This document shows, piece by piece, positions 7,342-61,888 of a DNA stretch of 64,000 nucleotides. Below the pieces are notes generated by a model. The model worked only from the letters and a program-made list of their open reading frames with translations. It was not told the DNA's origin and did not search any database. A program made the translations under genes and the position numbers. The DNA comes from Octopus vulgaris (lineage: Eukaryota), in the NCBI GenBank assembly GCA_951406725.2, contig OX597828.1, forward strand, positions 58,218,001-58,282,000, written 5' to 3'. Position 1 is the stretch's first letter, and each line of letters begins with the position of its first letter.

Positions 7342-7390
7342 TTGTCAAAAAATTTTCATCGCTATAAGACCGCAACCTGTTCACTGACAA
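7342..7390 (-). ncRNA. Minimal type I hammerhead ribozyme-like motif, G3-C8 core variant, in a (TA)n-flanked element (about 7260-7450)
   Basis: Minus strand: UUGUCA-GUGAACA-g-GUUGC ggucuuaua GCGAU-GAAA-auuuuu-UGACAA. Stem I is a perfect 6-bp helix. Confidence 0.5.
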
Positions 7391-7544
7391 AAATCCGTGC
7401 TGCATCCACGACTTCACATAAAAAATCTTGCACAACAAATATTTAAACGCATATATATATATATATATATATATATATATCTTTATATATATATATATGT
7501 ATGTATGTATGTATACAGCCTCAGAGTGGTGCTTGTACCATTTC

Positions 7545-8272
7545 TCAGAAGTTTTGAATTTATAATGCTGACATATTATCCAGTGTAGTTATCAACCAAC
7601 TCTGTCATGTCTTGATTTATACTTTAACGGTGCTAAAACCTTACACCCAAAGATTAGGTGCTCCACCGTTTCAATCTCTCATCATTGCAGTATCAGCACT
7701 TTGGATTTACTCCATTGTTCATCACATTGGCTTGGTAGTTCCAGGTTAGTAAGCTCTGATCCTGAGCATCTAAGATAAAGGTTTCCCCTCTATGTCTTTA
7801 GCCCTGAGCTCCATATCCACTGATGGATGTGCTTCTGGTCTATATCAGCTTGTTTGCTATGGGCCACATCTTTGTCATGCAGAGGTTTTTTTATCCCCAG
7901 TTATCAGCCAATTGTTCAAACACATTTTGCTTTGCTGTTGATTTCACCTTCTTTATAACGACAATTGCGGCATTTTCATCATGCTGTTCAACCTGGGTAT
8001 TATGCATGAACTCACAAACAAGTTTTTTGTTCTCCTTCATGACAGAATGAAGCTTCTTTACATCTCTTATGGTTTTTGACAAGTTTTAGCATCCAGTCAT
8101 TGGATGTTTCAAGATATTTAGCCAGTCTGATTGTAGTAGTTTTGTAAGAGATTTCAAATTGGATCAAGCCTTGAGCTCTGGGAAGGTAAAGATGATCCGT
8201 GTCTGCCTTTGGGTGGTGCATCTTATTGCAAGTCAGCAGCTTATGGATTTTCCTGCCAATCTTTCTTATTTT
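7545..8272 (-). mobile_element. R4/Dong-clade non-LTR retrotransposon fragment (post-RT region to zinc knuckle), decayed
   Basis: ORF 8012-8344 contains MHHPKADTDHLYLPRAQG, matching the HHPKADxDRLYLPRxxGGRGL motif. Frameshifted continuation toward a RHD-containing C-terminal region. Abuts a (TAT)n array. Confidence 0.8.
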
Positions 8273-8273
8273 G

Positions 8274-8388
8274 ATTATTATTATTATTATTATTATTATT
8301 ATTATTATTATTATTATTATTATTATTATTATTATTATTATCATTATTATTATTATTATTATTATTACAATATAAGCGGCTTAATAAT
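8274..8388. repeat. (TAT)n microsatellite
   Basis: Direct reading. Confidence 0.95.
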
Positions 8389-9493
8389 GATTTACTAATT
8401 GATTAATTTGTAGGCAACTCAAAGTTCTATATAAAATAATAACTTTATCATTAAATATTTCCCCTCAGTTCTTTTTTTTTCTTTTTTTTTTGGTTACACA
8501 TTAAAACATTGAGAATTTTTCCAGTTTAGATTTAGGTAAATGTTTATAGATAAGCTCTTTATATGATAATGCAGAGAGATTTCTTATTTTTTCCAAAGTC
8601 CACTACATGTCACCTAAAAACCTACCTTACATCGTTACTGAAATGTGTTGTCAAATACTATTAATAAACTAGAGAAACAATCTTTGGGATGTTATCTATG
8701 GTGTTCCATGACCCAAAAGCATTACCCCAAAAGCAATATTCTGAGTGAAGTTTCTCTTGTGTGGGTCTCATAATATTTTGTATGTGTTGAAGTCCAGCTT
8801 TATTATTTTCAAATTTTATGGTCGGCTCTTTGAAACTGCTGGATATTTTCCATTTTAATGTTTTACTTTTGTATGATTAAGGATATCCGGGTTCTTTTTT
8901 TATTATTTGCACTCCTTATCAGTACAAAGTTTGGGATTTGAGAATTTTGTTGATGTTGTGTGTGTGTTTGTCTGCTTTGCCTCTTTTTGTTGAGGTGGGT
9001 GCTACAGCAGTGGTGAGGGTGACAGTGATGGTGGTGGTGGTGGTGGTAGTGATGGCAGCAGTGCTGGCAGTGATACTGGTACTGGTGGAAATGGGGGCGG
9101 CAGCAGTGGGGTCTGTAGCAGGAGTGGCAATGGGGGTGGAGGGTGGTGGCAGTAGCTGTGATGGCAGTGGCTGTGGTGGAGGTGATGGTTATGGTTGTGG
9201 AGTTTTAGATTTGTCTGTGTTTGGAGTGTGGGTGGGGTTTTGGTACTGCAGTGTGTTTAAAACCCGTGTTTCTCACACACACACTCTCTCTCTCTCACTC
9301 TCACACTCTCTTTCTCTGTCACTCTCACTTTCTCTTTCATTCTCCCTCTCTCTCCCTTCTCTCTTCCTCTCCCCTTCTCTCTTCCTCTCCCCTTCTCTCT
9401 CCCTCTTGCTCTCTCTCTCTCTCTCTCACTCTCAATATATATATATATATATATATATATATATATATATATATATACATATATATATATATA

Positions 9494-9925
9494 AAGTTAA
9501 TCCAAACAAGAAAGCACAAAAAAACACAACAACGCAAGGACGTGGAACAAATATAGTATTATTGGACGCTCAGGAAAGAAGGAAAGAAGGAGGGTTTAAC
9601 GTTTCGAGTGGAGCTCTTCGTTGGAAACATAGGAGAAGGAAAGATCCAGAGAAAGGAAGACAGAGGAAAAAAATCGCCAACGGTACACACGAGGTCACAT
9701 TTTATATATATATATGTGACCACGTGTGTACCGTTGGCATTTTCTTCCTCCGTCTTTCCTTCTCTGGATCTTTCCTTCTCCTATGTTTCCGACGAAGAGC
9801 TCCACTCGAAACGTAAAACCCTCCTTCTTCCCTTCCTTCCTGAGCGTCCAATAATACTATATTTGTTCCACGTCCTCGCCTTGTTGTGTTTTTTTCTCTT
9901 GGTGTTTTCATGTTTGGATTAACTT
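9494..9925. mobile_element. Inverted pair of about 205-bp Penelope-like pLTR units separated and flanked by (TA)n
   Basis: 9494-9700 is the imperfect reverse complement of about 9715-9925. A third copy lies at about 43000-43192. Each unit carries a hammerhead-like motif. Confidence 0.7.
9785..9819 (+). ncRNA. Minimal hammerhead ribozyme-like motif (core CCGACGA; the copy near 43065 has canonical CUGACGA)
   Basis: GUUU-CCGACGA-a-GAG cucca CUC-GAAAC-GUA-AAAC, with palindromic ACGU stem III. Confidence 0.55.
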
Positions 9926-59780: not shown

Positions 59781-60222
59781 TTAAACTCCCAAATGGCCTA
59801 GACCTCCTTTTTCTAAATAGGTACTGAGAACAGACACAACTTATATAATTGTAAAAACTACCATTACCTCGCTAAGACTGGTCTGTATTTTGTTAGTTTA
59901 CAGCTCAACTCCTCCTGTGAGTAGAGTGTTTATCTATGTTGAACGTATTACCTCCCTTAGAGTGGATTATGTGTTGCATATGAAAAGCAGGCTTTCATGG
60001 CTTGTCAAAAGACTAGATTTGAAGCAGAGGGGATACAATTATGACAGATGAATTTAGACTACATAGGTAACAGAATTTAGTTTCTTTTTCGTTTCCATAC
60101 TGAAATCTTGCCAGAGTGAACTTCATCTTTCATCTGTCTAGATCAGTCAAGGGCATGCTACAGCTGTCAGGATTTTTTGAATAGAATGCCTCATGAAAAA
60201 TTACTTTTGGTTTCTTTTTCCA

Positions 60223-60480
60223 GTCATCATTGTTCGACCGTGGTCGAGACAATGGAATTTACCATTCTACGCCAGACTTCATAGCATTACGGAGGTCCTG
60301 TTGCTGGATGCCTGTATCCCTGGAGATTACATCAGGGTAGGAGAGTGTGCGCCCTCTGATATTGCGAGCAGATGGCTTCCAGAGGAGAAGAGTAGAAATT
60401 ACCTCTTTTTCATCTCTACAACAATGTCCAGCAAACTGGACTCTCCTACCTTTCACAAGAGATGATACAGGTGGTAGATT
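60223..60480 (-). mobile_element. RTE-clade LINE 3' fragment
   Basis: GNLPPVSSLVKGRRVQFAGHCCRDEKEVISTLLLWKP in ORF 60259-60513. Confidence 0.8.
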
Positions 60481-60858
60481 TCCCTGCTCACCTGATGGTG
60501 GGTCATGTCTCATGTGGCCTGCTTCTCAAAAAAGGTGGTCCATGCCTGGTCTAGATCAGTAATTACAATAGGGAAACAATTCATTCAACTACATTCCTCA
60601 TTTACTTTGTGTTATTATAAGAAATGATTATGTTGTTGATAAACAAGTCGGTAGAGTAATATATTTCTCAGCGGTTAATTTCTCTTCTCTTCAAAGTTCA
60701 GCTCCTGCTGCTGAGATCAATAAAATAAGCACCAGTAATACGTGAGATTGATTTAACAGACTTCTACTCTTCTTTTACTTCTTTCATTGACCTTTACCAA
60801 TTGAAGTGTTTGATTTTCTCCTTTTTCTTTTCTTTTCTTTTTTTCGGTTTTATTCCAG

Positions 60859-60987
60859 CCAAAATCTCTGTCAACCGACCATGCAAAGAACATTCATTTC
60901 TCACTGATGTGGCCGATGTCCGGATGATGGAACAAGGTTTACTACAGCTACTTGATGATTTTCATTCTGGGAAACTCCAAGCTTTCG
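60859..60987 (+). CDS. CCDC28: CCDC28 coding exon, conserved domain ([35 protein letters not shown])
   Basis: Closely matches the CCDC28A/B signature [33 protein letters not shown] acceptor, G|GTAAAG donor, 129 nt, phase 1-1. Confidence 0.95.
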
Positions 60988-61581
60988 GTAAAGTTTTGTC
61001 TCTTTTACTAACCCATTTCTTCCTATATTATTCCAAGCTTTATTGTCCCAAAAACAAAAAGAAAATTCGTTATTCCCTGGGTCATTCATTTGATGCTTGT
61101 TATGAAAACACTAAAAGCAATGATGGCAGACTAAACGCTTGGTGTTTAGATGCCATTGCAACGATGATGTTGTGGTGTTTAGCTACTGAATGAAAGGTAG
61201 ATGTATGGTGTTTACATTTCACAGCAAAAATGAATTTGTGATGTCCAGGTGCTGTAGGAAAGATAAATCTTGGCAGAGTCATCTTTTGTGACTCACAGCA
61301 AAATTCAGTACTGGGGTTGATATGTTTGACTAAACCCTTTCAGGCATTGCCCCAGCATGGCTACATTCCAATGACTGAAACAAGTAAAGGATAAATCAGT
61401 TAATAAATAATATCAACAATTTTCAATTCATTACTTGAAGTATTAACTATCAATGTACTAGAAACACTGAAGGAAGAAATAATCCAAAGAAATCCATTCA
61501 ATGAAACACAAAAAATAGATTTCGTTTTTGGATTTGGTTTGCAAGATTCTTTATATGAGTTCGTGTGTTAAAGCATATTCT

Positions 61582-61888
61582 ATTGTGTCTGGGGAAAGTC
61601 ATTTTCTTTTTGTGCCTTATTATGTAACACACTCACCGGTAAAATTTCCATGTTTTTCTTATTTTTATTGTCCTAAAATTTTCGTTGTGTCTTGCAACCT
61701 TTTCAATAGTTTTGACTCTCAAAACTATTGAAAGAGTCAAAACTATTGAAGAGTCAAAACTATTGAAAAGGTTGCAAGACGCAATGAAAATTTTAGGACA
61801 ATAAAGATAAGAAAAACATGGAAATTTTACCGGTGAGTGTTTTACATAATACGGCACAAAAAGGAAATGACTTTCTCCAGACACAATA
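61582..61888. mobile_element. Inverted pair of about 138-bp pLTR-like arms with U3-A8 hammerhead-like motifs (61760-61796 on +, 61673-61709 on -)
   Basis: The arms are imperfect reverse complements. Motif CUA-UUGAAAA-g-GUUGC aagac GCAAU-GAAA-AUUU-UAG. Three reiterations of GAGTCAAAACTATTGAA at the junction. Confidence 0.65.

Follow-up and report, generated by a model that had tools for sequence, protein, structure and literature searches.

Hammerhead motifs at the ends of octopus Penelope-like elements: variant cores, and short copies likely derived from spliced transcripts

Six hammerhead families in one window

Minimal hammerhead ribozymes from the retroelement group known as Penelope-like elements (PLEs) have been described together with their opposite-strand pairs, a bulge after A9 and a U3-A8 version of the core 3-8 pair (Cervera and De la Pena 2014, PMC4209133). 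Here we analyze a 64 kb stretch of Octopus vulgaris DNA (GCA_951406725.2, contig OX597828.1, positions 58,218,001 to 58,282,000; "the window" denotes this whole stretch), which is 37% GC and microsatellite-rich and belongs to a genome of 2.8 Gb in 227 contigs. It carries hammerhead motifs of six repeat families, which we call A, B, D, G, U and Y. Judging from the open reading frames (ORFs) linked to their relatives elsewhere in the genome, five of these (Y, D, G, U and A) are the 3' ends, or pseudo-long terminal repeats (pLTRs), of protein-coding PLEs. The window copies are listed below, with the positions of core nucleotides N3 and H17.

7259-7406, minus strand: family G pLTR-end copy; N3 7384, H17 7348; core GUGAACA (G3-C8), bulged G
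9492-9703, minus strand: family D inverted twin; core G5 changed to A, predicted dead
9714-9927, plus strand: family D pLTR-end copy; N3 9789, H17 9815; core CCGACGA (C4), stem III ACGU
26163-26341, minus strand: family A inverted twin; N3 26303, H17 26269; arms 100% complementary over 175 nt
26343-26369, plus strand: family A exon 1 of 27 nt, with a precise junction to the acceptor side; 0/27 mismatches to L455
26370-26606, plus strand: family A exon 2; N3 26383, H17 26417; core CUGAAGA, stem III palindrome ACAAUUGU; (TA)n at the end
35088-35270, plus strand: family Y pLTR-end copy in (TA)n; N3 35146, H17 35173; C6
41496-41687, plus strand: family Y copy; N3 41564, H17 41591; core CUGUGGA (U6)
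43002-43192, plus strand: family D decayed copy; loop II deleted, stem III palindrome gone
45738-45900, minus strand: family Y copy; N3 45862, H17 45835; core CUGUAGA (U6)
52291-52970, no single strand: family B array of one inverted and two direct copies, the latter 341 nt apart
52291-52395, minus strand: family B inverted copy; N3 52372
52435 and 52776 (N3): family B direct copies, the first with A8 and the second with G17; old repeat, no ORF found
61535-61719, minus strand: family U copy; N3 61706, H17 61676; core UUGAAAA (U3-A8); stem I of only 3 contiguous pairs
61750-61891, plus strand: family U head-to-head twin; N3 61763, H17 61793

Every core cited in the earlier note on this DNA is present where it had been placed, and 10 of the 11 sites satisfy a type I hammerhead descriptor. 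The descriptor was built after the motifs had been viewed and makes the 3-8 pair obligatory, so it is not an independent test of that pair. At a score of at least 10 it gave 11 matches in the window, namely those 10 sites and the inverted twin at 26303 on the minus strand; 40 block-wise dinucleotide shuffles averaged 0.25 matches and never gave more than 2. The window motifs thus exceed chance expectation. The remaining site, at 43067, does hold the core, but in the decayed family D copy, which fails the descriptor. In the family G copy, stem II has 5 bp and stem I has 6 bp (7 bp in the consensus). An Rfam scan of the window gave 152 matches, and the 150 of them that were listed include no hammerhead.

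Each family has one fixed core genome-wide

Consensus sequences were made by aligning 30 loci fetched per family, and their motifs are cleaner than the window copies. The G consensus combines a 7-bp stem I, the core GUGAACA, a bulged G, a 5-bp stem II, the palindrome AAUAUU and U17, and the U consensus a 3-bp stem I, UUGAAAA, a bulged G, a 5-bp stem II, AAUU and U17. D and Y both have ACGU as stem III, with cores C(U/C)GACGA and CUGUNGA, respectively. The core CUGAAGA is found in A, where stem III is ACAAUUGU and stem II is closed by U-U, and in B, whose old copies are 69-90% identical to the window copy. Stems I and II, an unpaired base after A9 and a palindromic stem III are present in the families, with stem I of U and the stem II closure of A as exceptions. 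The layout of core, UH and GAAA with a 3-8 pair is likewise found in the A, B, G and U consensus and in D (with U4 or C4); family Y carries U6.

Genome-wide, each family has one fixed core; the counts that follow are of exact pattern matches only and hence lower bounds. The G core (G3-C8) occurs in 6,432 copies, whereas C3-G8 in the same context occurs in none and any other base at position 3 in 198. There are 2,235 copies of the U core (U3-A8), 10,646 of the D core and 242 of the A core. In family Y, U6 is present in 16,336 of 16,517 matches and A6 in the other 181, and the invariant A6 of the minimal type I PLE hammerhead is not kept. Thus, for the family previously written CUG[C/U]RGA, the predicted layout was found, but position 6 of its consensus is U rather than A; the C6 at 35146 is a private change of that copy. 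Family D has C4 instead of U4 in about 77 of the first 100 matches listed (counted by eye), and since C4-G5 is a CpG, some canonical-looking cores could be decay products. A3-U8 occurs in 76 copies of a family outside the window; at L223:3702-5745 (G000:C4:863000-872900) it lies in the inverted pLTRs around a GIY-YIG PLE fragment, with a stem II of 2 bp. The 3-8 core pair therefore occurs in all four Watson-Crick forms in one genome.

The earlier note had built an argument on finding three 3-8 types within one window. Such a finding is nothing special: motifs of this kind number in the tens of thousands across the genome, and PLE hammerheads with U3-A8 are already published (PMC4209133). With 15 family matches in 64 kb, compared to 43 in 38 ten-kb stretches at round coordinates (380 kb), the window has about twice the average density of hammerhead families and is not exceptional. 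The prediction that CUGANGA searches overlook many copies was borne out, as the largest families here (for example, Y with U6) fall outside that pattern. Six families do exist, as had been proposed, but some of them are related: across the ribozyme region, D and Y show 68-82% similarity, and the endonuclease linked to G shares 46-57% identity with that linked to U.

The proposal that most families sit in (TA)n and several are inverted holds only in part. A (TA)n tract at the 3' end is the rule in Y (27/29), D (27/29) and A (27/28), and is found in 16/29 copies of G but in only 2/27 of B; the value for U (6/28) is unreliable, as its consensus ends early. Head-to-head inversion is frequent in A (20/28), G (16/29) and U (14/28), occurs in 6/27 copies of B, and is near nil in Y (1/29) and D (0/29). 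At the inversion junction of the U pair in the window (61719-61768), a 17-nt piece of the unit 5' end is present in three copies, a pattern that repeated template switching would give.

Selection on the hammerhead fold

A scan of all fetched loci, with no requirement for a 3-8 pair, gave 28 multi-copy clusters. A filter on stems II and III kept 19 of these and dropped 9, including family B and one Hydra-type motif, both C-G. Positions 3 and 8 form a Watson-Crick pair in 18 of the 19 clusters (11 C-G, 5 U-A, 1 G-C and 1 A-U; permutation mean 8.1, p ~1e-5), and the sole unpaired cluster is a low-complexity repeat. Single descriptor matches are mostly noise, with 3-8 paired in 73 of 194. When 8 distinct related motifs from other loci were aligned, 97% of cells pair, compared to 79% in shuffles; 10 of 13 pairs vary on both sides, and 3-8 is C-G in four motifs and U-A in the other four.

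Conservation relative to flanking sequence points in the same direction in several families. Among 11 ORF-linked Y representatives (<88% alike), the ribozyme is invariant in 31 of its 38 columns and the flanks in 73 of their 168; all four bases occur at N7 and either A or U at H17, and U6 is unchanging. Outside CpG sites, the core mismatch is lower than that of the flanks in B (4.5% vs 15.5%), U (3.2% vs 7.1%) and A (0/70 vs 7.1%). Minimum-energy folding and co-folding formed stems I and II for G and U, and an active dimer was not predicted. The pairing of 18 of the 19 clusters and the retention of the Y ribozyme columns above their flanks bear out the suggestion of a selected fold, and compensation at 3-8 between families, with C-G, U-A, G-C and A-U forms all family-fixed, also stands. 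We regard it as nearly certain that these are PLE pLTR hammerhead folds. The G3-C8 hammerhead would probably cleave in vitro, while for the U6 hammerhead the odds of cleavage may lie slightly below even.

Five families are linked to coding PLEs

There is no PLE protein match inside the window. Elsewhere in the genome, an ORF with reverse transcriptase (RT) and GIY-YIG endonuclease lies 5' of the unit in Y, D, G, U and A, and none was found for B. For Y, 29 of 30 endonuclease loci have a unit 382-919 nt downstream on the same strand, and in three loci (L327, L329 and L330) the ORF is flanked by two hammerhead pLTRs (Pfam RVT_1, E=1.1e-7; GIY-YIG, E=0.0054, below cut-off). The window Y unit at 35088-35270 is 95.6% identical to a unit lying 741 nt behind a GIY-YIG ORF in L220/L227. 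An endonuclease was found upstream of G in 4/5 ten-kb loci (L433-L436) and of D in 2/4 (L439, L440) as well as in L426. For U, RT or endonuclease lies upstream on the same strand in 3/6 ten-kb loci (L427-L429), and 2 more are inverted. The first parent searches for family A failed (0/35 and 0/10 loci extended upstream) because the query contained the spliced junction. Fetching spaced pairs of family A core matches then yielded L453, which consists of a pLTR, a frameshifted Hydra-type ORF (DKT, CxCx5C), a 2.8-kb 3' region and a second pLTR; like L327, L329 and L330, it has direct pLTRs with a hammerhead in both. Since the G, D and U loci were reached by walking 5' and the A locus by spacing, and were chosen for length, they establish the link but not its frequency. 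Thus, the proposed connection to PLEs is upheld, with Y, D, G, U and A units continuing 5' into RT and GIY-YIG ORFs, but the idea of a mainly non-autonomous PLE/retrozyme population is not: five families are tied to coding PLEs, and only B is tandem with no ORF found.

The clade names applied here to the parent ORFs are based on motifs only. The parents of Y, D, G and U share a CX2-5CxxC linker, and the D and Y ORFs are 50-68% identical. One linked ORF has its nearest protein relative, at 91% identity, under the label Octopus vulgaris. The family A parent has DKT and CxCx5C, with KWK for RWK, and shows 37-55% identity to another Hydra-type ORF of the genome (main matches). In an endonuclease tree, 7 of 10 inner branches are without resolution, and the order of core changes is therefore not readable.

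A GIY-YIG search of the genome also returned intact 781-residue ORFs, many with a U3-A8 hammerhead behind the stop. These belong to a Neptune-type PLE (L213-L216), in which a coiled-coil ORF in a different frame precedes and overlaps the RT-endonuclease ORF and the hammerhead lies in the 3' region of many copies. A young, high-copy Hydra-type PLE (L211:3414-8420; top copies 98-99% identical) has an intact 955-residue ORF with asparagine-rich inserts and no Pfam match. Its hammerhead lies ~2 kb after the stop and has a stem II region of ~85 nt. In L211 and L212 a D unit precedes this Hydra-type ORF, and we considered whether it could be the pLTR of that element. This was rejected, as the element has its own long-stem hammerhead past the stop and the D parent is another PLE; the two share a (TA)n site.

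Short copies have a fixed 5' end and, in family A, a spliced junction

Most copies of the units are short and begin at a common site. Of those that reach the unit start, few run more than 20 nt beyond it (D 2/34, G 2/41, U 4/41, Y 1/35), and among unselected D copies reaching the start, 9 of 10 end within 10 nt. The stop hazard at this site in D is 0.14 per nt, compared to 0.0055 downstream (P ~3e-11; 4e-7 with the local hazard). The stops lie at, or a few bases from, pyrimidine-CA or -TA sites, which we take to resemble an initiator. We also considered that short copies might start at the ribozyme cleavage site, but 5' ends do not pile up there (Y 1/21, D 0/24).

Family A reveals more about the origin of these copies. 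In long copies, exon 1 is located 1,028-1,091 nt upstream and is followed by a stretch running GTATGT...TTTTAG, with no microhomology at its ends. Genome-wide, 88 junctions are spliced and 77 unspliced. The acceptor is kept in 7/7 hammerhead copies of four long family A loci, whereas the other 40 copies fetched, most of them retrieved with a spliced query, are all spliced. The ORF of L453 starts ~60 nt past the end point of the short units. As read from these alignments, the short copies of family A have precisely lost a GT-AG intron of ~1 kb. Precise loss of the intron together with the fixed 5' end argues that spliced sense RNA is reverse transcribed. The short copies are quite probably cDNAs from the 5' end of the transcript, and likely of a spliced, uncleaved sense transcript.

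An additional feature of some short copies is an extra G at the 5' end (G 10/11, A 7/11, U 8/20). From work on long interspersed nuclear elements, an extra 5' G is expected when the cap is copied. As a trace of cap copying, it is suggestive only.

Proposed mechanism and alternatives

The explanation that we favor, with a probability of roughly 0.78, is that five of the families are hammerhead-bearing pLTR ends of coding PLEs, and that reverse transcription of the front portion of an uncleaved sense transcript likely gave rise to their short copies. Transcription would start at the initiator-like site in the upstream pLTR, and the core would follow after 13-85 nt of mature RNA. The RT-endonuclease would nick (TA)n or AT-rich DNA and prime inside the RNA at a pLTR end. 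Priming at the 5' pLTR copy would give a short cDNA extending across the uncleaved hammerhead as far as the first base of the RNA, and fold-back or template switching at the RNA 5' end may produce the head-to-head pairs. Priming at the 3' pLTR copy, in turn, would give long, intron-bearing copies. The hammerheads themselves are predicted to be slow ribozymes, assisted by dimer formation or protein, that serve in the trimming of tandem transcripts. The core pair would be preserved by G3-C8, U3-A8 and A3-U8, and U6 and C4 would lower the rate. A bolder version, to which we give somewhat less than an even chance, holds that a capped, spliced, uncleaved sense mRNA is copied to its first base, leaving strong-stop-like pLTR cDNAs; that introns in long copies merely reflect priming at the 3' copy and not an antisense template; and that these elements bear working hammerheads with all four 3-8 pairs and with a U6 core so far unreported from nature.

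Several observations weigh against the favored explanation. The permutation p value for 3-8 pairing is too small, because the families are related, and 9 of 28 clusters were filtered out; the stems of the 8-motif alignment, moreover, were pre-selected by a pairing descriptor. The non-CpG core mismatch is no better than that of the flanks in G (3.7% vs 4.6%) and worse in D (8.2% vs 4.8%), and stem I of U has just 3 contiguous pairs. The ORF links of G, D, U and A rest on loci selected by 5' walking or spacing. Only family A shows splicing; the stops of G, U and Y2 have an AG next to them, and no upstream exon was found for these families. The extra 5' G is rare in D (2/13) and Y (0/8), and several of the A and G cases could be templated by the inverted partner. 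Finally, a short spliced master amplified in trans would yield an identical pattern.

This last point leads to the possibility of non-autonomy, in which the short units would be SINE-like masters or retrozymes, once derived from PLE ends and now amplified in trans. Such an origin is likely for family B, with 341-nt direct repeats in the window and in 6/27 loci and no ORF found, and other tandem hammerhead arrays exist, with units of 359 nt (L289/L442) and 362 nt (L296). Short copies greatly outnumber long ones and have a common fixed start, and a preprint derives animal retrozymes from pLTRs (10.64898/2026.07.22.740005). However, direct tandems are scarce in the other families (G 0/29, U 0/28, A 1/28, D 1/29, Y 2/29), the window Y unit closely matches an ORF-linked one and the window A exon 1 is identical to that of its parent, and the promoter side upstream of the start is missing from short copies; for these families we consider the possibility rather improbable. 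Somewhat less improbable, though still unlikely, is that the fold is retained for a non-catalytic role, such as a signal for RT-endonuclease binding or priming, and that cleavage has been lost in the variant cores, most notably U6. The two commonest families are altered at conserved positions (U6 in Y, C4 in D), A6C strongly lowers the rate in Mg2+ (PMC3088659, PMC7151607), inactive hammerhead mutants still insert in vitro (PMC11167929), and 5' ends show no pile-up at the cleavage site. Yet only the catalytically competent fold brings positions 3 and 8 into a pair (PMC3884650), and this pair is nonetheless retained in all four forms, and H17 remains non-G while N7 varies freely.

The remaining two alternatives carry far less weight. 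The short copies of family A could descend from a single DNA deletion rather than from splicing, and one junction is indeed common to all spliced copies, as a single ancestral event would give; but the removed stretch has intron-like GT-AG ends with zero microhomology, and the copies start 27 nt upstream, at a site resembling an initiator, which makes a deletion very improbable. That the motifs are chance hairpins in AT-rich repeats would fit the noise among single matches of the loose descriptor, but the shuffle control, the position in pLTRs and the compensatory changes contradict this, leaving it a negligible chance.

Relation to known systems

The octopus families resemble the metazoan PLE type I hammerheads of PMC4209133 in their short stem I, an unpaired base between 9 and 10.1, G10.1-C11.1 and palindromic stem III, as well as in pLTR position, many dispersed single copies, close opposite-strand pairs and U3-A8. 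They differ from the Fig. S3 motifs of that paper that were compared, among which no cephalopod appears, in having G3-C8, A3-U8, U6 and C4. Nor do the passages of that paper describe spliced genomic copies, which family A has. Natural U3-A8 and A6C have also been reported, as rare isolated cases from phage or bacteria (Perreault et al. 2011, PMC3088659; PMC7151607), whereas U6 has become fixed in an octopus radiation exceeding 16,000 copies.

Another counterpart is the Anolis Poseidon element PAc (Frangieh et al. 2024, PMC11167929), which nicks AT-rich DNA and primes internally, has uncleaved RNA as its main substrate, and carries a hammerhead that needs protein. Like PAc, the octopus elements have a hammerhead near the pLTR end and AT-rich targets, and an engineered C3G/G8C version of PAc is partly active. 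Unlike in PAc, G3-C8 occurs naturally and has been fixed in thousands of copies, the hammerheads sit upstream of the ORF start and do not span it, and genomic copies record splicing. In Drosophila virilis Penelope, the start site and a 5' UTR intron lie inside the pLTR (Schostak et al. 2008, PMC2377424); family A similarly has a putative start in the pLTR, a short first exon, an intron and then the hammerhead. PLE genomic copies are known to retain introns (PMC8557442, PMC3846280), while in family A intron-less junctions are about as many as intron-bearing ones. An antisense template has been proposed for PLEs, and some solo pLTRs have been ascribed to recombination or deletion (PMC3846280). 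The (TA)n bias, inverted pLTRs and the Hydra clade were described by Craig et al. (2021, PMC8557442), who called the significance of intron retention unknown. The octopus elements share with the Hydra and Neptune/Nematis-type clades of that study a C-terminal GIY-YIG, (TA)n insertion, and tandem and inverted pLTRs, but the family A parent has KWK where Hydra has RWK.

Non-LTR retrozymes (PMC7229834; preprint 10.64898/2026.07.22.740005) are matched by the B, L289 and L296 arrays of ~340-360 nt units, in each of which a type I hammerhead but no ORF was found; B fits their head-to-tail layout in part (6/27 loci and the window array). G, U, D, Y and A, unlike retrozymes, are dispersed monomers or inverted pairs tied to ORFs, with 0-2 of 28-29 loci tandem. 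The L289 and L442 arrays (G000:C1 near 20,002,300-20,004,500) are near-identical 359-nt arrays with CUGACGA, that of L296 has 362-nt units with UUGAAAA, and each has an inverted part. These arrays resemble retrozymes, and C3-G8 versus U3-A8 distinguishes related families.

What is already published thus includes U3-A8, inverted pLTRs and (TA)n targeting. In titles, abstract openings and passages we found no report of natural G3-C8, A3-U8 or A6U, although Lunse et al. (PMC5785218) or Arkhipova et al. 2017 (PMC5850863) may hold some, and files S1-S2 of PMC8557442, Fig. S6-S7 of PMC3088659 and supplement part 3 of PMC4209133 may show them; the novelty of the G3-C8, A3-U8 and U6 cores is accordingly uncertain. 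The same kind of material gave no report of octopus hammerheads, nor of spliced or strong-stop PLE copies. Octopus Penelope families are listed in PMC13282606, whose main text lacks the words "hammerhead" and "ribozyme"; PMC6765202 and PMC8495972 were also compared. The system itself is of a known type. What is new, subject to that uncertainty, is that G3-C8, A3-U8 and U6 cores are each fixed in a family and that the genome records a spliced sense template.

Other features of the window

An exon of a CCDC28 gene lies at 60912-61004 on the plus strand (Pfam PF13270, E=3.9e-12), and the family U pair, ~0.5 kb behind it, is possibly intronic. Other dispersed SINE-like (short interspersed nuclear element) families, unrelated to the hammerhead units, occur at 2990-3159, 10376-10539, 12643-12736 and 44371-44604, with more copies. 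The window also contains a (TCTA)n array of 646 nt (22298-22943) and a 62-nt tandem repeat at 58771-59048.

Significance

In this one genome, nature has mutagenized the hammerhead core: all four 3-8 pairs, as well as U6 and C4, are each fixed in tens to thousands of copies, and CUGANGA descriptors overlook the largest families. The core variants are ready constructs for asking whether PLE hammerheads need cleavage. The model of short copies predicts exact transcription start sites, and it bears on PLE intron retention and the copied strand (PMC3846280, PMC8557442).

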